From sequence record PZ445551.1: a stretch of 64,000 nucleotides of DNA; one strand, 5' to 3'. A model generated the notes under the pieces. That model was given only the letters and a program-made list of their open reading frames with translations, was not told the DNA's origin and ran no database searches. Source of the stretch: a phage. Every line of letters starts with the position of its first letter. The stretch's first letter is position 1. The position numbers were made by a program, and so were the translations under genes. Shown here in pieces: positions 20,314-62,204 of the stretch.

Positions 20314-21126
20314 TTACTTAGTCAAATGATCTTCTATCATTTTTATGAAAGCAGGATTGCTAAAAGCATCTGCTGCCTTTTCTCTATAAACAAAGACTCC
20401 TCTATCTTCGTAAAGAAGAGTTTCTTCGTAATTAATTCCTGGGTTAACAACAATCATTTTTATACCCATAGTAAGTGCAGGGAATAATTCCCAATTAAAA
20501 TTGATAACTTGGTTTGAACATCCTACTACAACAACCAAATCTTGCATGGTCAAAGTATCAAACAAGTGAGCCATATCTGCATACAAAGGTGCAGCCTCAC
20601 CAAAAAATACAACATTAGGCTTCACCCAGTTATAATCATCTATGTTTATACTATTGTAACCAATGTCTACCAGTGTTTTGTAATCTCCAGGGTGCATACG
20701 GTAAACTACTTCAGGAAGATACCCGTGCACGTGAATAACAGAATCCCTGTCCACACCTGCTCGCTCTAGTAGATCATCAACGTTTGTTGTCAAGTTTACT
20801 ACTTGGTTAGGATATTCCTTAAACCACTTTGCTATTTGAATATGTGCAGCATTAGGTTGTACATCTTTAAGCTCAACACGTCTTTTGTTATAAAATTCGT
20901 GTGTTTTGGCATACAAGTCCATACCGTTCTCGTCTACACCACCGACCACTGGAAGATCTGGAGATGTTCTCACACGATAACCTGCTTGGAAAGCTCCAAT
21001 ATCGCAGACCTCTTCTAAATCATATTCTTCCCACAAGGCACGACCACTATCTGTGTCTGTTCGGAATGTTCGAATCCCACTGTCTGCACTTAAACCTGCG
21101 CCACTAACAAAAATTACTCTTCGCAT
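20314..21126 (-). CDS. Sir2-family (sirtuin-like) NAD+-dependent protein, no zinc-ribbon cysteines
   Basis: N-terminal GAGLSADSGIRTFR matches sirtuin GAGxSxxxGIPxFR; VIHVHG catalytic His; 270 aa. Confidence 0.7.
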   Translation of the reverse strand: MRRVIFVSGAGLSADSGIRTFRTDTDSGRALWEEYDLEEVCDIGAFQAGYRVRTSPDLPVVGGVDENGMDLYAKTHEFYNKRRVELKDVQPNAAHIQIAKWFKEYPNQVVNLTTNVDDLLERAGVDRDSVIHVHGYLPEVVYRMHPGDYKTLVDIGYNSINIDDYNWVKPNVVFFGEAAPLYADMAHLFDTLTMQDLVVVVGCSNQVINFNWELFPALTMGIKMIVVNPGINYEETLLYEDRGVFVYREKAADAFSNPAFIKMIEDHLTK

Positions 21127-23940: not shown

Positions 23941-24198
23941 TTATTCTACAGGAACTTCTTCACCAAGAGAAACTTCTAAACGGAATGCTTTACTTTCAAT
24001 ACATTCACTACCTTTTAGAAAATCAAATTGCACTATAGACTGACTTAATAGGATAGATAGAATCACATCACAATCTTCACTAGGAGCTAGATGTTTGTAT
24101 TCTTCCTTCAAGGTAACATCATAAAAACATAAATCCCCTACTCCTAGTTCATCCCATCCTTCCCACGCATCTACAAAGTTAAACTCTAAACCTTTCAT
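23941..24198 (-). CDS. hypothetical acidic protein (85 aa)
   Basis: track ORF. Confidence 0.5.
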   Translation of the reverse strand: MKGLEFNFVDAWEGWDELGVGDLCFYDVTLKEEYKHLAPSEDCDVILSILLSQSIVQFDFLKGSECIESKAFRLEVSLGEEVPVE

Positions 24199-24719
24199 AC
24201 AACCTCCTCGTAATTGTTATTGTGTTTTACTGTCTCAACATACAATAAAGATTCCATCTGTAATACATTACCAGAAATAATAAACCCATAAGCCATTTCA
24301 GATGTGTCTATATCATATGCCCCGTCTTCCGGTTTAGCAAAGTGTAAAACTATTTCATCTGGGTTTTCTTCATCCCATAGTTTAGAAATTTTCCGAACCA
24401 GAATGTTAGCTAAAATAGTTGACATTCGGGATAAAGCTGTATCCTCATATCTTTTAAAACCTAGCCAATAGAGGTTAAGAATTTCTACTTCTTCTTGTGT
24501 TAAGTTTTTGTCTAAAGTAATCAGATCTGTAGAGCACGGCGTTTTTGTTGAACCTACGGTTACAAAACCTGGAGTGTTATGAAAAACAATCTTAACTTTA
24601 TCACGTATAAAGTTTAAACCTTGTGCCTCAACTATATATTGTATTGTAGGTACAATATCGTTTGTTACATCAATAAAACTATCTTTAATGACGCTTATAT
24701 TATTTCTGGACAAGACCAT
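24195..24719 (-). CDS. hypothetical protein (174 aa)
   Basis: track ORF. Confidence 0.5.
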   Translation of the reverse strand: MVLSRNNISVIKDSFIDVTNDIVPTIQYIVEAQGLNFIRDKVKIVFHNTPGFVTVGSTKTPCSTDLITLDKNLTQEEVEILNLYWLGFKRYEDTALSRMSTILANILVRKISKLWDEENPDEIVLHFAKPEDGAYDIDTSEMAYGFIISGNVLQMESLLYVETVKHNNNYEEVV

Positions 24720-25278
24720 TCTCCTCTAAAATAGGCTTAATAAACTCGAAAATTTGTTTTTTACTTTTACCTCGAATATTAAAACAAGGAACATTAAACT
24801 TTTTAGCCAACATCCAAGCTGTTCTTGTACCACCTAAAGGATCTCCATTTTTATCTGTATTTGCACAAGCTAAAAGAAAACAAGATGGTTTTGGATTCTC
24901 AAGATCTCTTCCAAGAACTTGGTGAATATTTCTTTGATGTAATTTTTTAGAACCTTGAGATAATCTGTCCCAAGCTGGATGCAATTCTTTTGCATATTGC
25001 AAGGTTAGAGCATAGTTTACACTATCTGGTCTGTCAAGAACAATAACCTCTCCCTCTATTTCATTACCTTTAAACGAGAGCCAAGGGATGTATATTTCTT
25101 TCTTTGTATTGTTCCCACTATCATATACCCCGCATTCAAATGCGGAATCTGCACCTGCTGCTTTACCAGATCGCAAAATGAACCATGTAGATAACCATTT
25201 TGCAACAGATACCATAGTATCCCATTCTTCGTCTGTAATATCTCTGCTACCAACACCTGTGTAGAATAAATCGCTCAT
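24700..25278 (-). CDS. Rossmann-fold SLOG/DprA-like protein (192 aa)
   Basis: track ORF trimmed to MSDLF after RBS aaggag; YTGVGSR...RSGKAAGADSAFECG resembles the DprA/LOG/SLOG core. Confidence 0.4.
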   Translation of the reverse strand: MSDLFYTGVGSRDITDEEWDTMVSVAKWLSTWFILRSGKAAGADSAFECGVYDSGNNTKKEIYIPWLSFKGNEIEGEVIVLDRPDSVNYALTLQYAKELHPAWDRLSQGSKKLHQRNIHQVLGRDLENPKPSCFLLACANTDKNGDPLGGTRTAWMLAKKFNVPCFNIRGKSKKQIFEFIKPILEENGLVQK

Positions 25279-25288
25279 GGTTTTCTCC

Positions 25289-25609
25289 TTAACAAGTAAT
25301 ATTGGGAGTAACAATTGGATTAACAATTGGAGTAATAGGGTACGTAAACCAAGGGCTTCCAATTTCCCAAGGATTATAAGGTCTACGAGGATCAAATGGA
25401 GGAGTTACTTCAGGCTTTTTCCAAATCTCCGCTAGTTGTTTCTTCCATTTATCCCTTGCTGTCTCATTATCTTCATCCAACTGTTCATCATTATCTTTTA
25501 TTTCTGGTTTTGGAAATAAAAGCTCTTTGACTAACTCAACATCTTCCGTCTCAATAGTAGTTTCTTTCGTAAGTTCTCCTACTGTTTCTTTAATTGTGAT
25601 TTTATACAT
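25289..25609 (-). CDS. hypothetical protein (106 aa), Pro/Trp-rich C-terminus
   Basis: track ORF; RBS gaggagg; TAATG overlap. Confidence 0.5.
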   Translation of the reverse strand: MYKITIKETVGELTKETTIETEDVELVKELLFPKPEIKDNDEQLDEDNETARDKWKKQLAEIWKKPEVTPPFDPRRPYNPWEIGSPWFTYPITPIVNPIVTPNITC

Positions 25610-26355
25610 TAGTCCTCCTCTAAAGTAGAATAAAATTGTAACGTATTTGAATCATCAAAATATGCAAAGGTTAAATTACCATTGAAGCAAGATCCTGTGT
25701 CCATATATACCCTATTACTGCTAATCACAGGTTTAGGAACATAAGAATGCCCGTGAAATACATAATCTACTCCTGAAACCCTAGGGAGAAGAATTCCTTC
25801 AAGTGCGCAATCTATCATATCACGATCCCACATTAAAGATTCTGTGAATCGAGAAACTTGCTCTTTATTCATATTCAAACAAAATGGCAAAACTTCTGTC
25901 ACTGGTAAATGTTTCAAAACTGAAGGATACCCACCGTGAATAAAGCCTAGTTTCATATTACGATAATTGACAACAAGTACAACAGGTAAATCTTCTAGCA
26001 TCAAAGCAAGAGCAGTTGCACCCTCTTCTCCACACTCGTCTAGAACTGTATGGCCTCCGTTCTGAAACCAACATTCGTAATATCGTCTATCACCTTCTAG
26101 CAACCCTTTAATCATCATATCTTCATGATTTCCACGAATACCATAACGATTTAGCTTTCTGGTGAATTCAACAACACAACGAAAATTCTGCTTGCCGCGA
26201 TCTGTAAGATCTCCTAAAGATACAACAACATCTTGATCTCGGATACCTAAAGTATTAACACCTTTCTGGTACAAATCAAAGCAACCATGTAAATCACCAA
26301 TAATAAACAGGTCTTGATCATCTTTTACACTAATTTCTTGATATACTAGCATCAA
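25609..26355 (-). CDS. Ser/Thr protein phosphatase (PPP/lambda-phosphatase-like metallophosphoesterase)
   Basis: GDLHGC, GDLTDRG, GNHE motifs. Confidence 0.8.
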   Translation of the reverse strand: MMLVYQEISVKDDQDLFIIGDLHGCFDLYQKGVNTLGIRDQDVVVSLGDLTDRGKQNFRCVVEFTRKLNRYGIRGNHEDMMIKGLLEGDRRYYECWFQNGGHTVLDECGEEGATALALMLEDLPVVLVVNYRNMKLGFIHGGYPSVLKHLPVTEVLPFCLNMNKEQVSRFTESLMWDRDMIDCALEGILLPRVSGVDYVFHGHSYVPKPVISSNRVYMDTGSCFNGNLTFAYFDDSNTLQFYSTLEED

Positions 26356-26688: not shown

Positions 26689-27261
26689 TTAATGTGTTAA
26701 TGAAACTGCGTAACTAAACACAGGTTCAGATATTACATCGGCTACAGTAATAAAAACGTCTTCGTCTTGAGTTGTTTCTACACGACATACAGTTACACCA
26801 TTCACCACGAATTCAACGCAATGTGGAATATCTTCACAAACGAAGGTAGTGTAAGTAACACCCAAAGCATCATACAAAGATTTAACAGTGTTTGCAAGTG
26901 CCGCAGTTTCTTCTTTTTCTGAGACAATGAATGCTGTAACAACAAGATTGTTTGCATAGTTTAGACTGTCCTCTATAGCCAATGATTTACAAGGTAGTAA
27001 TGCAAAATATTTACCTGGTTTAATCAGACCTGCTTCCCATTGATTCAAAATTGCTTGGGATGGTTTAGTAATATAAAACAGATTTTCACTTGGGTTATCA
27101 ATATTACTTCTGGCGATACAACGTGAAGGATTATTAATATCAAACACATGATCAAAATCTACACAAACTGGTAAACTGAAAGGTGTGAATTTTTTACCTA
27201 ATAATCCTACTGCTGACAATATGTTTGCTGTGCTTATCTTCCCGTTAAAAGCTAAACGCAT
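26689..27261 (-). CDS. hypothetical protein (190 aa)
   Basis: track ORF. Confidence 0.5.
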   Translation of the reverse strand: MRLAFNGKISTANILSAVGLLGKKFTPFSLPVCVDFDHVFDINNPSRCIARSNIDNPSENLFYITKPSQAILNQWEAGLIKPGKYFALLPCKSLAIEDSLNYANNLVVTAFIVSEKEETAALANTVKSLYDALGVTYTTFVCEDIPHCVEFVVNGVTVCRVETTQDEDVFITVADVISEPVFSYAVSLTH

Positions 27262-27485: not shown

Positions 27486-28148
27486 TTATTTAATATTCAA
27501 TTTTGCACAAAGACGTTGTACCGCTTTGGCATCGAACAAACTCCCACGAATAGTTCTCTTTCCTGATTCATTCAGATGTTTTGCAATCGTCATATATGGC
27601 GTTTTACAAGCTCTGTATGCAACTAAAGAATCTTTTAAAGAAAGCGCAAACTCTTTTGAGCGTTTTGCTTCTTCCGTTTTCGTATAATCTGTTCTTTTGT
27701 ATTTAGGGTTTGCTGCACCAAGAAGCGTTCCCTTCGCTTTTGCTACTTTAAGGCTCTTCTTAACACGATCAGATATTGCACGAGCCTCTTCTTCTGCCAG
27801 AACTGCTAAAATATTTATTATCATATTTTCAGCGGAGGGCATAGTTGCTATTCGTACATTAATCATCTCTAACAAGGTTGCAACAGAAGCTGTGTTACGT
27901 CCAAGACGGTCAACCTTAGCAACAACAAGTGTAGCACCTGTTTCTTTGCAAAGATTAACAGCTTTTACAAGCTCTCTACGTTGCTTCCAATCGCCTTTAC
28001 CCGAATAAAACTCTGCAAAGCTACCTACAATAGTATAATTTTCTTGTGAATCCAGGAAGCGTTGGATATCTGCTTCCTGTGATTCTATACCATACTGGTT
28101 GCCTTGTTGTTTCTTCTTAGAAAGTCGATGATACAGTACAAACTTCAT
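27486..28148 (-). CDS. serine recombinase (resolvase/invertase family)
   Basis: RLSKKKQ catalytic-Ser region, VVAKVDRLGRNTASVATLLE, AVLAEEEARAISDRVKKSLKVAKAKG, C-terminal HTH. Confidence 0.8.
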   Translation of the reverse strand: MKFVLYHRLSKKKQQGNQYGIESQEADIQRFLDSQENYTIVGSFAEFYSGKGDWKQRRELVKAVNLCKETGATLVVAKVDRLGRNTASVATLLEMINVRIATMPSAENMIINILAVLAEEEARAISDRVKKSLKVAKAKGTLLGAANPKYKRTDYTKTEEAKRSKEFALSLKDSLVAYRACKTPYMTIAKHLNESGKRTIRGSLFDAKAVQRLCAKLNIK

Positions 28149-31592: not shown

Positions 31593-32093
31593 TTAGTTAT
31601 AAGCGTCTAATGTTCCAGTTTTAAGTACCTGAATTACACGCTCTGCGCGATTAGGCGTTTGGCGATACCATTTACTTTTACGTAAATTTATAGAGGCTTG
31701 AGTATAATATGAATTACTCACTAAAGTCAAGCTATTTTTGAAAGATTCTGCACCTTTCAATCCCATTTGAAATACCATATTGATAATAGCCATTTTACGA
31801 TTAGGACTTACTTTATCGTAAATAGGAGATAATATGGTACTTGAATGGATTTGTTGTATCGCTTTCTTTACGTCACTTTCAAAGATTCTTCTAGCTTCCG
31901 CTTCAGTAATAACTCCATTGGTTTTTCTACCTACTAAGTTATCAAGAATGCGTATAGCTTCTGCTTTATCTTTGAGTTTTGTCAGAAGGTGTCCAATACC
32001 AACTGTCCAATACCCTTCGGTATCAGGATATACAGTTAGCTTTAGTCCTTCATCAAAACGTAACATATCAAACACATCAACTACTTTAGCCAT
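31593..32093 (-). CDS. T4-type lysozyme (endolysin, GH24)
   Basis: MLRFDEGLKLTVYPDTEGYWTVGIGHLLTK matches the T4 e catalytic E/D/T region. Confidence 0.9.
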   Translation of the reverse strand: MAKVVDVFDMLRFDEGLKLTVYPDTEGYWTVGIGHLLTKLKDKAEAIRILDNLVGRKTNGVITEAEARRIFESDVKKAIQQIHSSTILSPIYDKVSPNRKMAIINMVFQMGLKGAESFKNSLTLVSNSYYTQASINLRKSKWYRQTPNRAERVIQVLKTGTLDAYN

Positions 32094-32105
32094 GTTTTCC
32101 TTATA

Positions 32106-32249
32106 TTAGTCGCCCTCCCCATGATCTAGCTCTTGAAACAGTAGGTGTTCAGGAGACATTTCACGTTTAGGCTTCGTCTTTTTAGTTTGGGACTTAAGCT
32201 CTGTTGCCAAAGCACGAGAAAAGATTTTACGTTTCTGTTTACCTTTCAT
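32106..32249 (-). CDS. small basic protein (47 aa), not in track
   Basis: ATG 32249 after RBS ggag; Lys-rich. Confidence 0.3.
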   Translation of the reverse strand: MKGKQKRKIFSRALATELKSQTKKTKPKREMSPEHLLFQELDHGEGD

Positions 32250-32253
32250 ATTG

Positions 32254-32520
32254 TTACTCCGCAATCTGAGCCATGAATTCACGTAGTTCAGAAAAACCTC
32301 CTACGTGGGTTAGCTGTTCACCATCTTCCACAAAAATCTGAGGAAATGTGCGTGGTAGAACACCTGTTTTCTCTAAAACCAGATTCTGAATCTGATCTAA
32401 AGAATAGTCTTCATCTAAGGTAAGGTATTTAAAATCCTGTTCACGCTGTTCTAGTAGAATCTTAGCGTTAGTGCAGAAAGGACAATTTGGTTTACCGTAG
32501 ATAATAAAATTCATTTTCAC
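32254..32520 (-). CDS. glutaredoxin/thioredoxin-like (NrdC/NrdH-type)
   Basis: CPFC active-site motif near N-terminus; 88 aa. Confidence 0.75.
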   Translation of the reverse strand: MKMNFIIYGKPNCPFCTNAKILLEQREQDFKYLTLDEDYSLDQIQNLVLEKTGVLPRTFPQIFVEDGEQLTHVGGFSELREFMAQIAE

Positions 32521-33347
32521 TCCTTGTTTAAAAGTATAGTTAAAGTTCTTACAATACCGCTATCAACACTTCGCGGATTTAAAGTAGGATCTGTTTTTAA
32601 ATAAGATGTTGCTGGTCTGACTGCTTTTGAATTATAGGTTGAAGCAGATACAGGATTAACTGTAACAGATAAATCTATAACAAGAAATATCTTTCGTGCA
32701 AAATCATACCAAGAAATATAATCTGCACCTGCATAGTGTACAATTTTACTATTTACACCATCTTTTACAAGTTTAAAAATTGTTTCTGCAAGATCAGGTG
32801 CATAAGTAGGACATGATAAATGATCACATACTACATTAAATTCTTTTTGACCACCGTTGTAGCGTTCCAACATAGTTTTCAAAAAGTTATGTCCAAATTC
32901 ACTATAAACAGAAGCTGTTCGGATAATAAGTGCTGTAGGACAAACTGTTTGTACTAAAGTTTCACCTAATTGTTTACTATAACCGTAGGTGTTCAAGGGG
33001 TTTGTTTTACTATCTTCTGTACCAGCAACATGCCCATCAAAAACATAGTCTGTTGAAATATGTACAAACTGTATCAGTAAATCATTACATGCTTTGGCAA
33101 TGTTTGTTGCACCGTATGCATTAACATTTATACAGGTGTTAACATCTTCTTCAGCTTTATCTACTGCCGTGTAAGCCGCACAATTCACAACAACATCAGG
33201 CACATGCTGTACAAGACTATTCATAACATCTTTAAAGTTGGTAATGTCTACATCACTTGCTTCAATCAAAATAACATCTTCGGGCGCAACTTTTGCCAAA
33301 GACTGTCCTAATTGACCTTTTGAACCAAAGACTAAAAATTTTGTCAA
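32517..33347 (-). CDS. rmlD: dTDP-4-dehydrorhamnose reductase
   Basis: N-terminal GxxGQLG Rossmann motif; position after rmlC. Confidence 0.75.
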   Translation of the reverse strand: MTKFLVFGSKGQLGQSLAKVAPEDVILIEASDVDITNFKDVMNSLVQHVPDVVVNCAAYTAVDKAEEDVNTCINVNAYGATNIAKACNDLLIQFVHISTDYVFDGHVAGTEDSKTNPLNTYGYSKQLGETLVQTVCPTALIIRTASVYSEFGHNFLKTMLERYNGGQKEFNVVCDHLSCPTYAPDLAETIFKLVKDGVNSKIVHYAGADYISWYDFARKIFLVIDLSVTVNPVSASTYNSKAVRPATSYLKTDPTLNPRSVDSGIVRTLTILLNKE

Positions 33348-33898
33348 AATATGATCTCCTTTAGTGTTTTGGCTTCCTGATCTTTTTGTGACAAGATAGG
33401 TTTAAAATTAATATCATTAAAGATTAAATCAAAACCCCAATCTATATTGATATCTGGATCATTCCACGCAAGACTACACTCTGAAGTCGGATCGTAATAT
33501 TCTGTACATTTGTATTCAAAATCAGCAATATCACTAATCACAACAAAGCCATGAGCGAAACCAGGAGGAATCCAAAATTGTGTTTTATTCTTTTCAGATA
33601 AGAGAACACCTACCCATTCTCCAAATGTTGGACTACCAACCCTAATATCTACAGCAACATCATAAACTTCACCACGAACACAGCGTACTAACTTCCCTTG
33701 TGGGTTTTTCTTTTGAAAATGAAGCCCACGTAGAACTCCTCGGATAGAACGTGAATGGTTATCTTGGACAAAGTTTTGTTTACCTATGTATTGATCATAT
33801 AAAGCCTGATTAAAACTTTCTAAGAAAAAGCCACGTTCATCTCCATAAACGTCAGGTTGAATGATCAACAAGTCTTCGATTTTTGTTGCTTGAATCAT
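33344..33898 (-). CDS. rmlC: dTDP-4-dehydrorhamnose 3,5-epimerase
   Basis: cupin-type RGLHFQ region; 184 aa. Confidence 0.8.
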   Translation of the reverse strand: MIQATKIEDLLIIQPDVYGDERGFFLESFNQALYDQYIGKQNFVQDNHSRSIRGVLRGLHFQKKNPQGKLVRCVRGEVYDVAVDIRVGSPTFGEWVGVLLSEKNKTQFWIPPGFAHGFVVISDIADFEYKCTEYYDPTSECSLAWNDPDINIDWGFDLIFNDINFKPILSQKDQEAKTLKEIIF

Positions 33899-33910
33899 TT
33901 AATTCCCCTT

Positions 33911-34780
33911 TTATTTTAATTTAAGTAAATACTTACCGTAGTCTGTTTTACTTAAAACCTCTCCAGAACTTTTTACAGAGTCTAAAGTAATCCATTCATT
34001 TTTAAAAGCAATCTCTTCCAGGCATGCAACCTTCATACCTTGTTGCTTCTCTATTGCATGAACAAATTGAGATGCTTCCATAAGACTTTCATGTGTTCCT
34101 GTATCCAGCCAAGTGAAACCTCTTCCTAGCTTACAGACACGTAAAGCCTTTTCTTTCCAGTACATCTCATTTATATCTGTGATCTCTAACTCCCCTCTAG
34201 CAGAAGGCTTAACGCTTTTAGCTTTCTGTATAACAGAATTATCGTAAAAGTACAAGCCTGTAATTGCATAGTTGCTTTTTGGTGCTTTTGGTTTTTCTTC
34301 AATACTTACCACTGTACCTTCAGAATCAAACTCAACAACACCAAATCTTTCAGGATCATTTACGTGATACCCAAAAATATTAGCTCCACCATTCTTTTCA
34401 ATATGTTCTTTAGCAGAATCTAAAATGCTACCAAAACTCTGACCAAAGAATAAATTATCACCTAGCACAAGTGCTACAGAATCTTCACCAATAAAGTTCT
34501 CACCAATAATAAACGCTTCTGCTAAACCTTTTGGGCTATCCTGTACTGCATACTGTAGGGAAATACCAAAAGAAGAACCGTCACCTAGAAGATTTACAAA
34601 ATTAATTTGATCTTCTGGTGTTGTAATTATTAGTATTTCCCTAATTCCAGAAAGCATTAGGACAGAGAGTGGATAATAAATCATAGGTTTATCGTAAATT
34701 GGTAATAGTTGTTTACTAACCCCTTTAGTAACTGGGTAAAGTCTTGTTCCACTACCACCTGCTAAGATAATACCTTTCAT
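33911..34780 (-). CDS. rmlA: glucose-1-phosphate thymidylyltransferase
   Basis: [19 protein letters not shown]-terminal signature. Confidence 0.85.
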
Positions 34781-34788
34781 ACTCCTCC

Positions 34789-35778
34789 TTAAACTTTATT
34801 TTCCCACCACTCTTTGTTATCTACATACCAATCAATGGTTGAATAAAGTTTTTCTTCAAATGTGCCTTTAGCTTTCCACCCTAATTCCTTTTCAATCTTA
34901 TAAGGATTCACTTCATATCTTAGATCATGCCCAGGCCTATCTGTAACCATCTCAATGAGGCTACAAGCATCTGTTTCAGATGGATATACCGCATCCATAT
35001 AATCACAAATCATATAGATTACATCAATATTAGTTCTAGGGTTTCTGCTCCCAATATTATATGTTTCTCCAGATTTGCCTTTAGTTACTACTAGGTGTAA
35101 TGCTTCTGCGTGATCGTCAACGTATAGCCAGTCTCTTACTTGAAGACCATTACCATAAACAGGGATTGGTTTATTCATTAAGATATTTGTTATCGTCTTA
35201 GGTATTAGTTTTTCTGGATGATGATATGCTCCAAAATTATTTGAACAATTTGTTATAACTGTCGGAATACCATAAGTACGATGCCACGCTCTTACCAAAT
35301 GATCGCTTGCAGCTTTAGATGCAGCATATGGACTACTTGGTTTATAAGGATTCTGTTCTGTAAACGGATAATCCCCTTCTTCCAGATCACCATACACTTC
35401 ATCTGTTGAAATATGATGGAACATTTTAAGATTTGATTTATCTCCCATTAAACGAACAGCTTCTAGAAGATTAAATGTCCCAACAATATTTGAATTTATA
35501 AAAACACTCGGTGATGCTATTGAATTATCTACGTGACTCTCTGCTGCAAGATGCATTATATAATCTGGATTAACATCTGCCACAATCTTAGCAGTTAACT
35601 GCGCATTTGTCAAGTCAACACGACAAAACTTTACATTAGGTGTTTCTGATAAATTCCTAGGGTCTGAAGCGTAACCCCATTTATCTATAACGTAAATATC
35701 ATTCTTAGTATTTTTAGCTAGGAAACGAACTACCGCACTTCCAATAAAGCCTAAACCACCTGTTACTAAGTATTTCAT
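34789..35778 (-). CDS. rmlB: dTDP-glucose 4,6-dehydratase
   Basis: TGGLGFIGS Rossmann motif, SDR YxxxK region. Confidence 0.85.
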
Positions 35779-56170: not shown

Positions 56171-57064
56171 ATGAAAGTTAGTATTCTACATGGTGTTGAC
56201 TGTTATGTTACTGATGTAGACGTTAAAGTCTTTACATTCTCTGGTGGAGAACAACATGTTCAACTAGATACGAATCTATCAGGTTTCAATCATGCTACAG
56301 ACAGAATCTTACTCTCTTTAGAAGTAAGATCTGCTAAAGACTTGATGACTTTGGTTATGACTAAGAATGCATTGGACAATATGCTATATCATAAACCATA
56401 TTGTGTTGATTTACTCATGCTGTATGTGCCATATGCACGACAAGACAGAGTGTGTGAACCTGGGGAAGCATTCGGAGTTAAAGCATTTGCTTCTATAATT
56501 AATTCATTAAATTTCTCACGTGTTATCGTTGCTGATCCACATAGTGATGTTACTCCAGCAGTGTTTGACAGACTCTGTGTAATACCTCAAGAAGAGATTG
56601 CTTACGAAACTTTAAAATGGAAGTTACGTATGGAGAATTTTGCTCTTGTTAGCCCTGATGGTGGTGCTCTTAAGAAAATATTTAAATTATCTAAGAAAAT
56701 GTCTTTAGATGTGTTCTGTGCAGAGAAGGTTAGAGATACCGCAACAGGTGCTATTGTTCGTACAGACATTTCTGTACAGGATTTCAATAAGCGTAACCTG
56801 ATGATCGTAGATGATATCTGTGATGGTGGTAGAACTTTTATCGAATTGGCTAAAGTGCTACGTGCTCGTAACGCAGGTAAGATTGAGTTATATGTTACAC
56901 ACGGTATCTTTTCTAAAGGTCTTAAAGAGTTAAGTGAGCACTTTGACTGCATTCATTCTCTTAATGTGTGGGAAGATAACATCCAAGAAGATTCCGGTGT
57001 TCTTGTTAAGAATCAGTCAGATTTGCAACAACAAATTGTATCTCCATACGTGTGGAATTTTTAA
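56171..57064 (+). CDS. ribose-phosphate pyrophosphokinase (Prs) family protein; candidate ADP-ribose pyrophosphate synthetase (Adps-like)
   Basis: VPYARQDR, VSPDGGA, MIVDDICDGGRT, VTHGIFS motifs of the PRPP synthetase fold. Confidence 0.75.
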   Translation: MKVSILHGVDCYVTDVDVKVFTFSGGEQHVQLDTNLSGFNHATDRILLSLEVRSAKDLMTLVMTKNALDNMLYHKPYCVDLLMLYVPYARQDRVCEPGEAFGVKAFASIINSLNFSRVIVADPHSDVTPAVFDRLCVIPQEEIAYETLKWKLRMENFALVSPDGGALKKIFKLSKKMSLDVFCAEKVRDTATGAIVRTDISVQDFNKRNLMIVDDICDGGRTFIELAKVLRARNAGKIELYVTHGIFSKGLKELSEHFDCIHSLNVWEDNIQEDSGVLVKNQSDLQQQIVSPYVWNF

Positions 57065-57135: not shown

Positions 57136-58884
57136 ATGAATATTTTTGCACCTTTTGCTACTGATTGGTATAAACCTGGTCACAAGCAGATGTACAACCA
57201 AAATACAAAACTCATTTTCTCTAATTTAACTCCTCGTAATGATAAAAACTTTGCACACTATGCAGATCGTGAAGCACGTGGTGTGATTGTTTTAGGTATT
57301 CGTCGAGCAGTCACCGATGCCCTTGTAACTATGTGGGACAGCTTCTTTAAAATGTCTCGTAGTGCAGCAGTAAATAAATTTTATCGTATGTCTAAAAATG
57401 CATTAGGTGCTTCTGCTCCTTCTGCTGAATGTTGGGGAGAATTGCACGATTTAGGTTATCTTCCGCTAGAAGTTCGATCTCTGCCAGAAGGTGTTTTGTG
57501 TCCTATTGGTGTTCCTGTGTTTACTGTGCATAACACTTTAGAAAAATTCTTTTGGTTAACTAACTATGTGGAAACACTATTGTCAGATGAAACTTGGAAG
57601 ACAATGACTAACGCCACAGCAGCTTTTCAGTATAAGCGTATCGCTATGGCGTATGCGATGGCAACGTGTGATAACATTGATCACGTTAATTTCCAGTGTC
57701 ATGACTTTAGTCTACGTGGCTTAAGCAATATCGAAGATGGTTATAAGAGTGGTATCGCTCATTTGGCATCTTTCACAGGAACAGATAATATTCTGGCTAT
57801 TGAAACTGTGCATGATTACTATGGTATTGATTATGATCAATTTGTTGCAGGTTCTATTCCGGCAACAGAACATTCAGTAGCAACGACTAACATTGGAGCT
57901 ATTGTTGAAGATCTGAAGAAACATTTCCCACATCTTAAAGATGATGTTGATGGGCTTCGTTATGTAGCAGAGAAAGAGTTTCTTCGCCGCTATATTGAAG
58001 AAATTGTCCCAGAAGGTTTTTGTTCATATGTAGCAGATTCTTATGATTACTGGGCTGTCTTGACTCGCATTCTGGTAGAATTGAAAGAGTCCATTATGTC
58101 ACGAAATGGTCGTCTTGTTATTCGTCCAGATTCAGGAGATCCGGTTAAAGTTGTTGCAGGATACAATGTTGAATCTTTTGATAACTATGAAGACCTTTTA
58201 AATAATGGTATTGCTACAGCCACTGAAGTAGTACATTTGGCTGATGTTAATAAGTATTACAATGTTCTTCAGGATTGCAGTGTTGCTGATTGTATCGATG
58301 AAACTTATGAGATTCCTTATTGTGAAGCAGTAGGTTCTATTCAAATCCTTTGGGAAGTGTTTGGCGGTACTATCAACCGAAAAGGCTACAAGGTTCTTGA
58401 TCAGCACATCGGTATGATTTATGGTGATTCTATTACTGTTGAACGAGAACACGAAATCTTACGCCGACTGAAGAAGAAAGGCTTTGCTGCTTCCAATATT
58501 GTATTTGGTGTTGGTAGTTATACTTATCAGTTCAATACACGAGATACTTTTGGTTTTGCTGTTAAAGCAACAGGTAGTATCATCGGTGAACACGAAATTT
58601 TGGTAAGTAAGGAGCCTAAAACTGATCCTGGTAAACGCTCTGCAAAAGGTTTTATTAAGGTTGTTAAGGATACAAATGGTAAACTTTCTCTTGTGGATAA
58701 TCTTTCTTTTAAAGATATCCAAGATGAAGACAATGAGTTAAAAGTTATCTTCAGGGATGGTACGGTTATTACACCACAAGTAGAAGGACGTGATGAAACA
58801 TTTACTGATATCCGTAACCGTGTTGATGTAGAGGTTCTTCGTACTATGGGAACCATCCAGGTTGACTACATAAAAACTTCGTGA
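57136..58884 (+). CDS. nicotinamide phosphoribosyltransferase (NAMPT/NadV) family protein; candidate nicotinamide ADPR transferase (Namat-like)
   Basis: N-terminal TDWYKPGHKQMY matches the NAMPT TDSYK.TH motif; 582 aa. Confidence 0.75.
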   Translation: MNIFAPFATDWYKPGHKQMYNQNTKLIFSNLTPRNDKNFAHYADREARGVIVLGIRRAVTDALVTMWDSFFKMSRSAAVNKFYRMSKNALGASAPSAECWGELHDLGYLPLEVRSLPEGVLCPIGVPVFTVHNTLEKFFWLTNYVETLLSDETWKTMTNATAAFQYKRIAMAYAMATCDNIDHVNFQCHDFSLRGLSNIEDGYKSGIAHLASFTGTDNILAIETVHDYYGIDYDQFVAGSIPATEHSVATTNIGAIVEDLKKHFPHLKDDVDGLRYVAEKEFLRRYIEEIVPEGFCSYVADSYDYWAVLTRILVELKESIMSRNGRLVIRPDSGDPVKVVAGYNVESFDNYEDLLNNGIATATEVVHLADVNKYYNVLQDCSVADCIDETYEIPYCEAVGSIQILWEVFGGTINRKGYKVLDQHIGMIYGDSITVEREHEILRRLKKKGFAASNIVFGVGSYTYQFNTRDTFGFAVKATGSIIGEHEILVSKEPKTDPGKRSAKGFIKVVKDTNGKLSLVDNLSFKDIQDEDNELKVIFRDGTVITPQVEGRDETFTDIRNRVDVEVLRTMGTIQVDYIKTS

Positions 58885-58940
58885 TAAGATTAAGGTAAGG
58901 AGAGCCTGCAACTGCCCTGGATGGGCTTCACGAAGGATTT

Positions 58941-59162
58941 ATGAAACAACATAATTTTTATTTTCGTTGCCGAGCCTGTAACAGACACTTGACTAATCAC
59001 TCCCGTAGAGACAGGAATGGTAATATTCAAGAGTCGGATCTATGCTCGATTTGTACAAGTTTGGCATTCGACGACAGTCCCGAAAGGGTTTATCAACATC
59101 AAAGTGTAACTGATCTTCTTCTAAATTACACAGCACCAGAGGAGGAATTAGATTTCACATAA
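58941..59162 (+). CDS. small zinc-ribbon protein (73 aa)
   Basis: track ORF; CRACN ... CSIC. Confidence 0.5.
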   Translation: MKQHNFYFRCRACNRHLTNHSRRDRNGNIQESDLCSICTSLAFDDSPERVYQHQSVTDLLLNYTAPEEELDFT

Positions 59163-59175
59163 TTAAGGAAACAGT

Positions 59176-59286
59176 ATGTCTACAGAAATTATTTTTGGCT
59201 TATCTGTTTTTATTGCTCTTGTATCTTTTGTATGCGGTTATACACTAGGTTACAGATCAAGAAAAAATATTGTAAAAACTAGTTGA
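59176..59286 (+). CDS. small membrane peptide (36 aa), not in track
   Basis: ATG 59176 after RBS aaggaaacag; one TM segment. Confidence 0.35.
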   Translation: MSTEIIFGLSVFIALVSFVCGYTLGYRSRKNIVKTS

Positions 59287-59342
59287 CAACATAGCTAGTT
59301 ATTTGCTAAGATAAGCCCAAGTTAAACAAAAAGGAGAAAACT

Positions 59343-59609
59343 ATGACAGAACGTACTTATGGTAAAGAATTGATTGAGAAGCACGTATTGATTGATAATA
59401 AAGGTGGAGCAATCTTTATTTTTGAACCTGAATCAGTTCTTACTGAAAACGAAAATGGTAGCGTTAGCCTTAAAACAGAAAGTTTGGTAATTGACTTCCT
59501 TGCTCTTCTGGATGAAATGGGGCTTCCTCACGAAGAAGAAGCAGCTATTGCTTTGATTGCAGTTCTTCTGGAGAAACGCGAAGCTGGTGAAATGACCCAG
59601 TATGCTTAA
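59343..59609 (+). CDS. hypothetical protein (88 aa)
   Basis: track ORF; RBS aaggagaaa. Confidence 0.55.
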   Translation: MTERTYGKELIEKHVLIDNKGGAIFIFEPESVLTENENGSVSLKTESLVIDFLALLDEMGLPHEEEAAIALIAVLLEKREAGEMTQYA

Positions 59610-59616
59610 TATTCAA

Positions 59617-59692
59617 GGTTCCATAGCTCACTGACGAGAGCGCACACCTCATAAGTGTCGAGGGCAGGGATTGTAACCCTGGGGAACCTCCA
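59617..59692 (+). tRNA. tRNA-Met(CAT) (or Ile2), atypical T-loop ATTGTAA
   Basis: manual cloverleaf: acceptor GGTTCCA/GGGAACC, D-arm GCTC..GAGC, anticodon loop CTCATAA, CCA encoded. Confidence 0.6.
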
Positions 59693-59723
59693 TTTAAAAG
59701 GAGGTGCTATGCATCTCCTATAT

Positions 59724-59809
59724 GCAAGTGTGGTGGAATTGGTGATACACATTGTGCTTAAAACGCAACGCTTAAATGCTTGAGGGTTCGAATCCCTCCA
59801 CTTGCACCA
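59724..59809 (+). tRNA. tRNA-Leu(TAA), type II
   Basis: acceptor GCAAGTG/CACTTGC, anticodon loop CTTAAAA, long variable arm, T-arm GAGGG-TTCGAAT-CCCTC. Confidence 0.75.
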
Positions 59810-59824
59810 ACACCTAAAAATATC

Positions 59825-59853
59825 TTGACATTTACTTAGTTTTTTGTTATAGT
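59825..59853 (+). promoter_or_regulatory. sigma70-like promoter TTGACA-17-TATAGT
   Basis: read directly; 11 nt upstream of the tRNA-like element. Confidence 0.5.
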
Positions 59854-59864
59854 TACTATGAAAA

Positions 59865-59946
59865 CGGGGTGTATCTCACCTGACTTCTAATCAGGCGTTA
59901 ACCGAGTAATTGGAGTATGCAGGTTCGAATCCTGTCACCCCGGCCA
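59865..59946 (+). tRNA. atypical tRNA-Arg(TCT)-like element lacking a D-arm
   Basis: perfect acceptor CGGGGTG/CACCCCG, T-arm GCAGG-TTCGAAT-CCTGT, anticodon hairpin CCTGA-CTTCTAA-TCAGG, but only 7 nt between acceptor and anticodon stem and a 23-nt insert before the T-arm. Confidence 0.4.
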
Positions 59947-60009
59947 AAAAGTTTTAAAAACTACTTGACAAGCAAGATAGTTTTATGTTAGATTTAAAGT
60001 ATAATAACT

Positions 60010-60099
60010 GGAAGGTAGGGCGCAGCGGTGCGCAACCAGGTTTGAACCCTGGCCCATTGTAGCGATACGGTGATGGTTCGACTCCATTATCTTCCTCCA
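60010..60099 (+). tRNA. tRNA-Ser(TGA), type II
   Basis: acceptor GGAAGGT/ATCTTCC, anticodon loop TTTGAAC, long variable arm, CCA encoded. Confidence 0.75.
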
Positions 60100-60117
60100 A
60101 ATTCTCTTAGGAGCTTT

Positions 60118-60270
60118 ATGAATTATAAAACTATTGGACAGGTTGTTACCGGAGTTAAGATTGTAAATAATAAAGTTGTTTATGAGTATTCTAATCTTCA
60201 ACAATCTGAAGATGGTAAGAATATTCGTATGGTAAAAACAGAACAAAAAGATTCCGGTTGTTTTGAATAA
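60118..60270 (+). CDS. small hypothetical protein (50 aa) embedded in tRNA array
   Basis: track ORF 60070..60270 trimmed to ATG 60118 after RBS aggag so it no longer overlaps tRNA-Ser. Confidence 0.45.
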   Translation: MNYKTIGQVVTGVKIVNNKVVYEYSNLQQSEDGKNIRMVKTEQKDSGCFE

Positions 60271-60278
60271 TTAAAAAC

Positions 60279-60364
60279 GGTAGATTGGTGAAATGGTAGC
60301 CACAACAGTTTGCTAAACTGTCGTCGGAAACGGCGTGTAGGTTCAAGTCCTACATCTACCGCCA
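60279..60364 (+). tRNA. tRNA-Ser(GCT), type II
   Basis: acceptor GGTAGAT/ATCTACC, anticodon loop TTGCTAA, long variable arm, T-arm GTAGG-TTCAAGT-CCTAC. Confidence 0.8.
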
Positions 60365-60498
60365 AGTTATCTTTAATGTAGCTTGTAATCTTACTTTAGC
60401 AGAGTAAATCTTCGGCAAGTGGCGGTAACCACTTTACCGATACCCCAATACTTCATAGCTAAGTGCCGCAAACACTGGCTATTTTAAAGATAATTTAT

Positions 60499-60574
60499 AC
60501 ATCGTTAGCTTAGTTGGTAGAGCAAGGGGCTTTTAACTCCAAGGTCGAAGGTTCGAATCCTTCACGATGTACCA
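60499..60574 (+). tRNA. tRNA-Lys(TTT)
   Basis: acceptor ACATCGT/ACGATGT, D-arm GCTT..GAGC, anticodon loop CTTTTAA, T-arm GAAGG-TTCGAAT-CCTTC. Confidence 0.85.
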
Positions 60575-60579
60575 AACAC

Positions 60580-60666
60580 GTAGGTATCGCATAGCGGCAA
60601 TTGCTGGAGACTGTAAATCTCCTGCCCTTCGGGGCTTCGTTGGTTCGAGTCCAACTACCTGCACCA
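60580..60666 (+). tRNA. tRNA-Tyr(GTA), type II
   Basis: anticodon arm GGAGA-CTGTAAA-TCTCC, variable-arm hairpin GCCCC-TTCG-GGGC, T-arm GTTGG-TTCGAGT-CCAAC. Confidence 0.8.
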
Positions 60667-60673
60667 AATTAAA

Positions 60674-60758
60674 GATGGATTGGCCTAGTGGTTGGGCGAC
60701 GGACTGTTAATCCGTGAACGAAAGTTCTAGCAAGGTTCAAATCCTTGATCCATCGCCA
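60674..60758 (+). tRNA. tRNA-Asn(GTT) with unusually long (15-nt) variable arm
   Basis: acceptor GATGGAT/ATCCATC, anticodon arm ACGGA-CTGTTAA-TCCGT, variable hairpin GAAC-GAAA-GTTC, T-arm CAAGG-TTCAAAT-CCTTG. Confidence 0.7.
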
Positions 60759-60837
60759 AATAGTGCTTGTAGAGTTAATAGAAACCTCTAGAATTTTCTA
60801 GAATTGTAGGTATCAAATCCTACCAAGCAAATATTTT

Positions 60838-60912
60838 GCTCCTATCGTATAACGGCTATTACGGTTGCCTTGTAAGCAACTTATCAGGGTTCGAGTCCTT
60901 GTGGGAGCACCA
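60838..60912 (+). tRNA. tRNA-Thr(TGT)
   Basis: acceptor GCTCCTA/TGGGAGC, anticodon arm GTTGC-CTTGTAA-GCAAC, T-arm CAGGG-TTCGAGT-CCTTG. Confidence 0.8.
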
Positions 60913-60935
60913 ATTTTAACTCTAAAGGAGTGTAT

Positions 60936-61259
60936 GTGACAGAAAAAGAGTTAGAGAAATATTTTAATATCAATGTTTTCGATGGTTTTGATGATATTGA
61001 AGATGTTGAAAGATATTATGAAGTAGAGTTAGATAAGGATAACATTGTAATTCTTTCTGCCACTTATGATTGTGCATATTATGAAGGCGAATCTCACGTT
61101 TATTTTTATGATATGAAAACATCTTTGTTTTATGAAGTACACGCATATCATTGTTCTTGTTATGGCTTAGAAGGTCAGTGGGAACCTGAAGAAATAGGTG
61201 ATTTGGACTTTACTATTGCATATCTAAACAGACGTGGTTCATCTACTATTTTAAAATAA
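60936..61259 (+). CDS. hypothetical acidic protein (about 107 aa) embedded in tRNA array
   Basis: track ORF 60930..61259; likely GTG start at 60936, 5 nt after RBS aaggag. Confidence 0.5.
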   Translation: MTEKELEKYFNINVFDGFDDIEDVERYYEVELDKDNIVILSATYDCAYYEGESHVYFYDMKTSLFYEVHAYHCSCYGLEGQWEPEEIGDLDFTIAYLNRRGSSTILK

Positions 61260-61273
61260 ATATCAAAAGCCTC

Positions 61274-61303
61274 TTGACAAAGGGGCTAATAATATGTTAG
61301 AGT
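61274..61303 (+). promoter_or_regulatory. sigma70-like promoter TTGACA-18-TAGAGT
   Basis: read directly; about 12 nt upstream of tRNA-Gly. Confidence 0.5.
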
Positions 61304-61314
61304 AATATTATTAA

Positions 61315-61389
61315 GCGGGTATAGTGTTAATGGTAGCATATGAGGTTTCCACCCTCCAGGTGCAGGTTCAAGTCCTGTTACTCGCTCCA
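61315..61389 (+). tRNA. tRNA-Gly(TCC)
   Basis: acceptor GCGGGTA/TACTCGC, anticodon loop TTTCCAC, T-arm GCAGG-TTCAAGT-CCTGT. Confidence 0.8.
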
Positions 61390-61488
61390 AGATTATTTAA
61401 ATGGAATCGTTAGAGAAAATTTCTCTTTTCGCTCATGGTTTTCTCCTTCAAACTCTAGCGGTTCTTTTTAAGTGATTTTTTAGTTTAT

Positions 61489-61563
61489 TGGAGATTAGCC
61501 TAGTGGGAAGGCAACGGCCTTTGAAGTCGTGATGACTAGGTTCGATTCCTAGATCTCCAGCCA
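61489..61563 (+). tRNA. tRNA-Gln(TTG)
   Basis: acceptor TGGAGAT/ATCTCCA, anticodon arm ACGGC-CTTTGAA-GTCGT, T-arm CTAGG-TTCGATT-CCTAG. Confidence 0.8.
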
Positions 61564-61570
61564 ATATTTA

Positions 61571-61646
61571 CAGTGCGTAGCGCAGTTGGTAGCGTGGGAG
61601 CCTTGGACGCTTCAGGTCGCAGGTTCGAGTCCTGCCGCACTGACCA
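61571..61646 (+). tRNA. tRNA-Pro(TGG)
   Basis: acceptor CAGTGCG/CGCACTG, D-arm GCGC-AGTTGGTA-GCGT, anticodon loop CTTGGAC, T-arm GCAGG-TTCGAGT-CCTGC. Confidence 0.85.
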
Positions 61647-61651
61647 AATTT

Positions 61652-61726
61652 GCAGAGATAGCTGAGACGGATTAGTGCTACCCTGAAAAGGTAGAAAGGA
61701 TGGATCGTTACCATCTCTCTGCACCA
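61652..61726 (+). tRNA. tRNA-Phe(GAA), atypical T-loop ATCGTTA
   Basis: acceptor GCAGAGA/TCTCTGC, anticodon arm CTACC-CTGAAAA-GGTAG, T-stem GATGG/CCATC. Confidence 0.75.
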
Positions 61727-61803
61727 AATAACACCATCCAAGGAGTAGACTTGGTTAACTGTCAATAGCACATTGAGGCTTCTTACAGTGGTGTACTTAT
61801 TAT

Positions 61804-61888
61804 GGCTAAGTGGTGGAATGGTATACACGATACGCTTAGAACGTATTGCCCCAAGGGATTGTGAGTTCGAGTCTCACCTTAGCTACCA
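61804..61888 (+). tRNA. tRNA-Leu(TAG), type II
   Basis: acceptor GGCTAAG/CTTAGCT, anticodon arm ATACG-CTTAGAA-CGTAT, long variable arm, T-arm GTGAG-TTCGAGT-CTCAC. Confidence 0.8.
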
Positions 61889-61903
61889 AATTATTACAGA
61901 TTG

Positions 61904-61982
61904 TGCGGGATAGAGGAGTCTGGTCGTCCTCGCCAGTTTCATATGCTGGAGATCATCGGTTCGAATCCGATTCCCGCCTCCA
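61904..61982 (+). tRNA. tRNA-Met(CAT) (second CAT tRNA; elongator Met, initiator or Ile2)
   Basis: anticodon arm CCAGT-TTCATAT-GCTGG, T-arm ATCGG-TTCGAAT-CCGAT, acceptor with mismatched 1-72 pair. Confidence 0.7.
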
Positions 61983-62040
61983 ATAAATACCTCCCTTCTG
62001 GTGTAATGATTAAGTTACATTGACACTTCAAGGAACTCAT

Positions 62041-62123
62041 AGCCGGGTAGATTTAAAAGAGTATGGTACTCAATATGGCTCCAAACCATAGATCAAGGGG
62101 TTCGATTCCTCACCTTGCTGCCA
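62041..62123 (+). tRNA. atypical tRNA-Trp(CCA)-like element (possible pseudo-tRNA)
   Basis: anticodon arm TATGG-CTCCAAA-CCATA and T-loop TTCGATT present, but 11-nt insert between acceptor 5' strand and D-arm and imperfect acceptor/T stems. Confidence 0.3.
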
Positions 62124-62128
62124 ATTAT

Positions 62129-62204
62129 TGTGGTATCGTACAGATGGTTAGTACACTCGACCGATAATCGAGAAACAACGGTTCGACTCCGTTTACCACG
62201 ACCA
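62129..62204 (+). tRNA. tRNA-Ile(GAT)
   Basis: acceptor TGTGGTA/TACCACG, D-arm GTAC-AGATGGTTA-GTAC, anticodon arm CTCGA-CCGATAA-TCGAG, T-arm AACGG-TTCGACT-CCGTT. Confidence 0.8.

Follow-up and report, generated by a model that had tools for sequence, protein, structure and literature searches.

A stand-alone DprA-type SLOG protein of Escherichia phage VivaForever as a candidate component of phage ADP-ribose counter-defense

It has been reported by Wang et al. that the single-stranded DNA (ssDNA)-binding domain of DprA is defined by two motifs, which set it apart from LOG proteins with their P-G-G-x-G-T-x-x-E motif (PMC3950713). In motif 1 (G-S/T/A-R), Arg52 gates the pocket and contacts phosphate, and in motif 2 (F/L/Y-x-x-R-N/D), Arg143 and Asn144 orient a flipped-in base (PMC3950713). 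A cellular DprA-like protein, ShosA, is the antitoxin of ShosTA and binds both ssDNA and RecA (PMC12961424). In a survey of jumbo phages, phage DprA/Smf was suggested to act as an extra ssDNA-binding protein (PMC7824862), and Iyer et al. (2022) proposed that viral SLOG domains, mostly YpsA-like and either stand-alone or fused to Macro, NADAR or DUF4326, sense or degrade host signals resembling cyclic ADP-ribose (cADPR) (PMC9503650). Both functional ideas, ssDNA binding and handling of cADPR-type signals, are thus already published as predictions, for partly different SLOG clades. In addition, phage NADAR (T4 30.3/AdfN) and Macro (T4 Tk.4/AdfM) proteins counter DarTG1 and DarTG2, which ADP-ribosylate ssDNA bases (PMC11543638, PMC11125620, PMC11825919, bioRxiv 10.1101/2025.11.20.689424). 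Here, we compare with these systems a stand-alone DprA-type SLOG protein, gp047, encoded in a 64,000-nucleotide stretch of phage DNA (record PZ445551.1; the window). We estimate at roughly 40% the probability that it is a nucleotide- or ssDNA-binding, possibly glycosidic-bond-processing module of a phage ADP-ribose counter-defense toolkit.

The window matches Escherichia phage VivaForever (PP925843.1) at 100% identity and phage phi92 of the genus Justusliebigvirus at 99.2%. Window position x corresponds to VivaForever record position 94105-x, and this relation correctly places the SLOG, SIR2 and NAPRTase-family genes. The gene, its ribosome-binding site (RBS) and the stretch preceding it, which also runs into an upstream open reading frame (ORF), are as follows:

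24700..25278, minus strand: stand-alone DprA-type SLOG coding sequence, Phi92_gp047 / VivaForever CDS0106, 192 residues
25285..25290, minus strand: RBS AAGGAG, 6 nt before the ATG at 25278, overlapping the stop of the upstream ORF
25279..25395, minus strand: spurious Leu-rich N-terminal extension of 39 codons with a TTG start at 25395, outside the gene

The protein has the N-terminus MSDLFYTGVGSRDITDEEW and also contains RSGKAAGADSAFECG (read from 24700..25278, minus strand). The TAA stop of the ORF at 25289..25609 shares bases with the AAGGAG box, and an RBS, AGGAG, is annotated at the same place in the phi92 record. A program-made ORF list gives a mechanical ORF of 231 residues (24700..25395). 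Its first 39 codons are spurious, because they overlap the gene at 25289..25609 in a different frame, because homologs (alignment A1, 59 relatives 37-77% identical to gp047) begin at the MxxxYTGVGSR position, and because the ATG at 25278 is used in both GenBank records (phi92 and VivaForever). The coordinates, the RBS-supported start and the YTGVGSR motif given in a preliminary description of this DNA were all correct, and the Leu-rich extension that it had noted upstream does not belong to gp047. The protein had been annotated before, within a phage family that is known and very large: the phi92 record describes it as a 'potential DNA processing protein like fold', its present label is 'DprA-like DNA recombination-mediator protein', and the PHROG 768 profile matches it over its full length (E=4e-59; residues 2-186 aligned to profile positions 2-184 of 191).

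An AlphaFold2 (AF2) model built on the 59-sequence alignment (pLDDT 96.7, pTM 0.92) consists of one Rossmannoid domain spanning residues 5-186 of 192, with five core strands and an insert after strand 3. The model has the three-layer alpha/beta organization and 5-stranded parallel sheet of the SLOG fold and matches known SLOG domains. Structural match figures were 16.0 for the molybdenum cofactor (MoCo) carrier protein, 15.2 for DprA 3MAJ, 14.9 for TM1055, 14.7 for DprA 4LJK (21% identity), 14.4-11 for LOG/PpnN, 13.4 for ShosA, 12.1 for YpsA and 10.7 for the ThsA SLOG domain with 3'cADPR, ThsA being the most distant among the top 15 SLOG matches. Helicobacter pylori DprA (HpDprA) held the top Foldseek rank (E about 2e-6). 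In BFVD, gp047 formed a tight group (TM 0.63-0.86) with phage proteins that carry the names Phi92_gp047, DprA-like or DNA recombination-mediator protein A, and viral YspA/DUF2493 and LOG proteins were far more distant (TM about 0.45). Sequence and model together indicate a single-domain, DprA-type member of the SLOG Rossmannoid superfamily.

Four sequence blocks carry the DprA-type assignment:

25243..25251, minus strand: DprA motif 1, G10-S11-R12, in the loop after strand 5-10; invariant in the 59 relatives and aligned with GSR/GTR of DprA/ShosA
25147..25173, minus strand: Gly-rich loop R36-S37-G38-x-A40-x-G42-x-D44, after strand 34-37; invariant columns
24910..24942, minus strand: DprA motif 2, L113-H114-x-R116-N117, followed by Q120 and G123, in helix 108-122 of the AF2 model; aligned with FPRRN
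24817..24834, minus strand: G149-G150-T151-x-T153-A154, at the N-terminus of helix 150-160; invariant, equivalent to DprA SGSLIT

Both published DprA signature motifs are present in the gp047 family. R116, N117, H114, Q120 and G123 were invariant in A1 and L113 was at least 90% conserved; the SG-A-G-D part of the Gly-rich loop is common to DprA (SGLARGID), whereas R36 is family-specific. Both SLOG-type ligand loops, after strand 1 and after strand 2, were conserved and polar/Gly-rich. The LOG motif PGGxGTxxE was absent in all 59 relatives, in which the equivalent segment reads G149-G150-T151-(R/A)-T153-A154-W without a conserved Glu. When the family profile was compared by hhalign with five DprA/ShosA domains (a template rebuilt from PDB alignments), the two were colinear over the full length with an E-value of 3.5e-4 and a probability of only 16%, which is low because the template is tiny. 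The four blocks fell in line in this alignment (GSR; SG-A-G-D; LHxRN with FPRRN; GGT-TA with SGSLIT), and with a lone E. coli Smf sequence as template the alignment of the family profile was limited to its N-terminal 41 residues.

Similarity to described families is otherwise remote. gp047 itself had no Pfam match even at E<=10, no NCBIfam match and no significant match among PDB sequences (the sole match was NSA2, E=1.1), and a PDB profile search reached DprA only at E 0.07-0.4. Among the relatives, 48 of 59 matched DNA_processg_A (PF02481) below threshold (E<=0.1, best E=3.6e-6), nine matched SLOG cluster 4, and none matched the Pfam models YpsA, YAcAr or LOG/Lysine_decarbox. Relatives fused to other domains scored 14.8-20.8 bits on DNA_processg_A, short of the Pfam gathering threshold of 29.6 bits. 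Given the DprA motifs in register, the missing LOG motif and this Pfam scan, gp047 is a divergent single-domain DprA-type SLOG protein and not of ThsA, YpsA or LOG type. The SLOG/DprA-like Rossmann assignment of the preliminary description is therefore supported by fold, motifs and PHROG 768 match, and the SLOG/LOG/DprA profile comparison that it had proposed came out for DprA (sub-threshold) and against LOG, YpsA and YAcAr.

Compared to DprA/Smf (PF02481; 4LJK/4LJR of H. pylori, 3MAJ of R. palustris, 3UQZ of S. pneumoniae), gp047 is without SAM and C-terminal winged-helix/DML1 domains, and its family occurs in a context of phage nucleotide/ADP-ribose metabolism rather than competence or recombination. 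It also has a family-specific segment (roughly residues 55-107) that bears an E-I-Y-I-P-W motif, as well as invariant polar residues beyond the DprA motifs: R36, H114, Q120, S132 and N167, to which T151 and T153 may be added. Judged from their positions at strand ends and helix starts, these residues probably surround the canonical ligand pocket. Single-domain DprA proteins exist (PMC3950713), and the single-domain form of gp047 alone does not exclude relatedness to DprA. The isoelectric point of family members (median 7.7, range 5.4-9.5) does not discriminate a DNA binder from a binder of small molecules.

Homologs of gp047 were detected by tblastn in 1231 of 50,697 phage records, the majority of which belong to large virulent phages infecting Pseudomonas, Klebsiella, Escherichia, Aeromonas, Vibrio and Acinetobacter. 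When 1.84 billion representatives (50% identity clusters) were searched with a profile, 6015 clusters matched at E<=1e-3, of which 2051 also did so at E<=1e-30. Most members stand alone, with lengths of 170-215 residues; 13 of the 150 best representatives (about 9%) are clearly multi-domain. SLOG was fused to NADAR (P0138, P0193), to DUF4326 (P0221, P0223, P0224), to A1S_2505_Nterm (phrog_2072; P0185, P0201) and to phrog_9995 (P0200, P0203), and two polyvalent proteins of about 1480 residues (P0121, P0122) combine DprA-type, YAcAr and LDcluster4 SLOG domains with NADAR. At the family level, NADAR is thus a partner in four representatives, DUF4326 in three and A1S_2505 in two. For the A1S_2505 domain, neither a PDB sequence relative nor literature was found, and a Macro-like identity was not confirmed. 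The polyvalent proteins (1488 residues in P0121, 1475 in P0122) are metagenomic, with NADAR at the C-terminus and about 600 residues without domain assignment.

Gene neighborhoods were analyzed by clustering ORFs within 6 kb in 80 IMG/VR loci and the window. A SLOG ORF was called in 71 loci, which form 32 SLOG lineages at 60% identity, and counts are given here as members/lineage groups. PhoH, often immediately upstream, was the commonest neighbor (34/10), followed by methyltransferase (26/5), HslV-like (21/6), ClpP-like (18/7), metallophosphatase (18/5), the small and large subunits of ribonucleotide reductase (RNR; 15/4 each), dCMP deaminase (13/6), CCA-adding/HD enzyme (13/3), glutaredoxin (12/4), Macro (10/5), PRPP-synthetase-like (10/4) and NAPRTase-like (10/4). 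A Macro gene lay near the SLOG gene in nine loci, and in Pakpunaviruses the SLOG gene follows a PRPP-synthetase-like/NAPRTase-like pair and a Macro gene. Hence, Macro, NADAR and DUF4326 all occur in fusions or neighborhoods at the family level. RecA, UvsX and SSB clusters were not among the top 30 neighbor clusters.

In VivaForever, gp047 is unfused, and the following genes accompany it elsewhere in the genome:

window 20314..21126, minus strand: SIR2 protein (Pfam E=1.3e-22), within the co-directional block of the SLOG gene and about 3.6 kb downstream of it
window 56171..57064, plus strand: PRPP-synthetase-like protein (E=6e-47 to the Pakpunavirus gene adjoining SLOG)
window 57136..58884, plus strand: NAPRTase-family protein (E=5e-141 to the Pakpunavirus gene adjoining SLOG)
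record 108617..109003 (locus L142 8617..9003), outside the window: DUF4326 homolog (hmmsearch E=4.7e-18), labeled 'NrdA-like ribonucleotide reductase' in GenBank
record 119778..120512 (L142 19778..20512), outside the window: Macro homolog (E=1.2e-32 to the Pakpunavirus Macro), labeled 'phosphatase' in GenBank
record 99823..100374 (L142 1..374; L141 49823..50000), outside the window: weak NADAR-like ORF (E=2.5e-5)

The NADAR-like match was made with a hidden Markov model of four NADAR domains that are fused to the gp047 SLOG family. Distances of 30-50 kb separate gp047 from the Macro, DUF4326 and weak NADAR-like genes, and the GenBank product names of the first two look wrong in light of these matches. 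Phage-encoded sirtuins are uncommon. The PRPP-synthetase-like and NAPRTase-family pair presumably resembles the NARP1 NAD+ reconstitution pathway (Adps and Namat). No RecA-like recombinase and no SSB are annotated in VivaForever, and two 'ATPase' genes resemble AAA+ proteins, not RecA.

The SLOG fold, DprA pocket motifs, architecture, fusions and co-encoded genes, along with the missing association with a recombinase, together suggest what the pocket of gp047 holds. This conserved pocket is formed by the G-S-R loop, the S-G-x-A-x-G-x-D loop, the L-H-x-R-N helix and the G-G-T helix cap, and most likely accommodates one nucleotide (base plus phosphate), as the DprA pocket holds one flipped-in ssDNA base. 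Because the usual partners of the family process base-attached ADP-ribose or ADP-ribose-derived nucleotides, we prefer a role as a counter-defense module. gp047 would act in phage ADP-ribose/NAD+ counter-defense as a binding module that possibly also processes N-glycosidic bonds, its most likely targets being ADP-ribosylated nucleotides within single-stranded nucleic acid, or products of their breakdown. It would work beside Macro, NADAR-like and DUF4326 proteins from separate genes, in a role other than that of a classical RecA-loading mediator. From these features we infer the ligand as well as any catalysis and a connection to a given defense system. T4 AdfN (NADAR, gp30.3) and AdfM (Macro, Tk.4) offer the closest functional comparison: like gp047 they are stand-alone phage proteins, although of unrelated folds, and of their domain types NADAR is fused to, and Macro and NADAR-like proteins are co-encoded with, the gp047 SLOG family. 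Both are thought to act on ADP-ribosylated ssDNA, a substrate class that a DprA-type pocket could recognize. Their anti-defense role has been shown experimentally, whereas gp047 is a candidate by sequence only.

Several observations weigh against this assignment. Fusions are confined to the above fraction of the top 150 representatives, and most members, gp047 included, stand alone. The commonest neighbors (PhoH, RNR, dCMP deaminase, glutaredoxin, methyltransferase, HslV/ClpP-like) belong to the generic repertoire of the early region or of nucleotide metabolism, and the presence of Macro, NADAR and DUF4326 in one genome may be explained by large genome size alone. The exact DprA motifs are equally expected of a plain ssDNA-binding protein, the NADAR-like match in VivaForever is weak, and literature searches found no experimental study of the phage stand-alone DprA-type SLOG family.

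The alternative that survives best, although we consider it somewhat unlikely, is a classical DprA-like function, in which a dimeric ssDNA binder shields the ssDNA of the phage and supports recombination-dependent replication or repair by loading RecA of the host or another recombinase. Such a role has been proposed for phage DprA/Smf (PMC7824862), and it would fit the two invariant signature motifs, DNA_processg_A as the nearest Pfam family and HpDprA as the best Foldseek match. The isolated DprA domain of HpDprA is enough for ssDNA binding, with a dissociation constant of about 30 nM (PMC3950713), and the co-directional block of the SLOG gene also holds DNA ligase, exonucleases and a polymerase exonuclease subunit. 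Bacterial homologs point the same way, lying near ParB-like, NYN and (by eye) RadC-like genes, an arrangement reminiscent of conjugative elements, which enter cells in ssDNA form. However, the SAM and C-terminal domains are missing, the C-terminal helix is poorly conserved in A1, recombinase and SSB genes are not recurrent neighbors, the fusion partners are ADP-ribose-processing domains instead of recombination proteins, and the many invariant polar residues outside the DprA motifs suggest a more specific ligand.

A further, quite unlikely reading is that the DprA-type pocket recognizes or removes ADP-ribose on a flipped-out ssDNA base, which would make the family a third class of anti-DarT-type factor. 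gp047 would then either cleave the ribosyl-base N-glycosidic bond (LOG-like chemistry on a DprA scaffold) or serve as a subunit that targets NADAR, Macro or DUF4326 enzymes to ssDNA. This would explain the NADAR and DUF4326 fusions in some phages and the co-encoding in VivaForever.

The preliminary description had also suggested that a free SLOG protein could sequester an immune signal. The ThsA SLOG domain of type I Thoeris (7UXS, 8WC0) belongs to the same superfamily and binds 3'cADPR in the equivalent pocket, and viral YspA/DUF2493 (cpYpsA-related) SLOGs are likewise stand-alone and share with the gp047 family the co-occurrence or fusion with Macro, NADAR and DUF4326. That gp047 is a sponge for cyclic ADPR-type Thoeris signals, or a hydrolase that breaks them down, is nevertheless quite unlikely, since the sequence signatures are of DprA type and ThsA ranks last in similarity among the top SLOG matches. 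Moreover, the YpsA, YAcAr and LOG models matched no relative, the YspA/DUF2493 proteins form a distinct clade by the BFVD scores, the prediction of Iyer et al. mainly concerns the YpsA-like clade, and known sponges were not among the fold matches listed. The DprA-like half of the preliminary interpretation thus stood and the cADPR-sequestering half is disfavored.

It is improbable that gp047 acts within the phage nucleotide-metabolism block as a LOG/PpnN-like nucleotide N-glycosidase and reshapes the nucleotide pool: LOG/PpnN phosphoribohydrolases and the MoCo carrier protein are close in fold, but the catalytic PGGxGTxxE with its Glu is replaced by GGT(R/A)TA, DprA motifs are found instead, and no relative matches Lysine_decarbox. 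Least probable is a ShosA mimic, an orphan antitoxin that would replace an unstable DprA-like antitoxin and neutralize ShosT; ShosA (8ZVA/9VZO) has a DprA-type SLOG domain whose R139 and R234, essential for ssDNA binding, would correspond, by motif-based mapping (GTR, RRN), to R12 and R116 of gp047 (PMC12961424), and phage orphan antitoxins have precedent (PMC11825919), but gp047 is no closer to ShosA than to ordinary DprA, is missing the SAM domain needed for ShosA stability, and belongs to a family whose spread over phages of many hosts suggests a broader role. ShosA is moreover a cellular protein with an N-terminal SAM domain that pairs with a phosphoribosyltransferase toxin and binds RecA, whereas gp047 is known from sequence alone.

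The genes next to gp047 are as follows:

25289..25609, minus strand: 106-residue ORF (Phi92_gp048, phrog_15301), between the phosphatase and SLOG genes
25609..26355, minus strand: NinI-like/calcineurin-like Ser/Thr phosphatase (Phi92_gp049; Pfam Metallophos E=2e-13; PHROG 246 E=1e-75)
24195..24719, minus strand: downstream 174-residue ORF (Phi92_gp046, phrog_8569), with its ATG 20 nt inside the SLOG gene and a GAGGAG box before it

The phosphatase that the preliminary description had placed next to the SLOG protein is present, with the 106-residue ORF in between, and a functional link between them is weakly indicated. A phosphatase homolog occurred within 6 kb in 17 of the 71 SLOG loci, and 12 of the 17 belong to the phi92-related clade (SLOG at least 60% identical), where it is always 214-441 nt upstream. 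Outside this clade it was found near SLOG in only five distant lineages, at 172-4993 nt, and no phosphatase-SLOG fusions were detected. With co-occurrence bound to one clade, variable distances elsewhere and no fusions, the adjacency largely reflects synteny and contributes little to the assignment of gp047. The overlap of gp046 with gp047 makes translational coupling probable, and gp046 is confined to the phi92-related lineage.

The SLOG gene belongs to a long co-directional block that also encodes RNA ligase/phosphoesterase, DNA ligase, exonucleases, a polymerase exonuclease subunit, thymidine kinase, thymidylate synthase, RNR, dTDP-rhamnose synthesis, PhoH, HslV, methyltransferases, invertase, phosphatase and SIR2. 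A serine recombinase/DNA invertase gene (27486..28148, minus strand) is present in what is a 146-kb virulent-type myovirus genome, and invertase homologs occurred near the SLOG gene in three lineages. Two paralogous 190-residue proteins annotated 'histidyl tRNA synthetase' (window 26689..27261, minus strand; VivaForever record 112365..112937; phrog_4806, E=4e-60) are far too short for a synthetase, and the window copy has no Pfam match. A four-gene dTDP-rhamnose cluster (window about 32517..35778, record 58327..61588), comprising in the phi92 record dTDP-D-glucose 4,6-dehydratase, glucose-1-phosphate thymidylyltransferase, 3,5-epimerase and reductase, is followed by a thioredoxin-domain gene; a complete phage nucleotide-sugar pathway may bear on DNA or surface modification. 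Just past the NAD-salvage pair, 15 tRNA genes are annotated, including one 'tRNA-OTHER' (window about 59724..62201, record 31904..34381).

In other phages, the SLOG gene lies in the variable region beside gene 24 of T4-like phages and directly after PhoH in IMG/VR PhoH-to-ClpP loci (L057-L065). The gene table of Bas54 (Vequintavirus) has no gene between the PhoH-like ATPase and a 103-residue ORF (bioRxiv 10.1101/2025.11.20.689424), and this comparison suggests that the SLOG gene is a variably present accessory gene. The homolog of Aeromonas phage ZPAH1 (MW272540.1 134509..135075; L086 3001..3567; 188 residues) is annotated 'RNA ligase', which is probably an error carried over from the nearby rnlB. 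A functional link to RNA ligase was rejected, as proximity to T4-like rnlB reflects the variable region from gene 24 to hoc/inh and the ZPAH1 protein is mislabeled. Bacterial homologs were few, mostly on Vicinamibacterales chromosomes from metagenome-assembled genomes (MAGs) and adjoining NYN and ParB-like genes. A narrower alignment (A2) found 50 loci, mostly MAGs, in which high-GC ORF calling was noisy and only the NYN and ParB-like neighbors were confirmed. In about 20 acidobacterial chromosomes (L099-L128), RadC-like and PAPS-reductase-like genes were seen by eye, the latter without a Pfam match. These surroundings suggest that the Vicinamibacterales homologs are perhaps on integrative mobile elements.

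In this study, we find that the family conforms to the published DprA motif definition and to neither the LOG nor the YpsA/ThsA one, that fusion to NADAR and DUF4326 is not limited to YpsA-like viral SLOGs but extends to this DprA-type family, and that VivaForever has companion Macro, DUF4326 and NAD-salvage genes without an annotated recombinase. gp047 is a reasonable but unproven anti-defense candidate and not a new kind of protein. PHROG 768 is among the larger phage protein families without a tested function, and the 'recombination mediator' label given by annotation pipelines comes from distant DprA similarity alone. If gp047 is a plain ssDNA-binding or RecA-loading factor, the finding is an ordinary one. 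If it acts in ADP-ribose/NAD+ counter-defense, that label would be misleading in thousands of genomes, and PHROG 768 would lend itself readily to screens against DarTG, Thoeris and other NAD+-based systems, which would include therapeutic phages of E. coli, Klebsiella, Pseudomonas and Acinetobacter.

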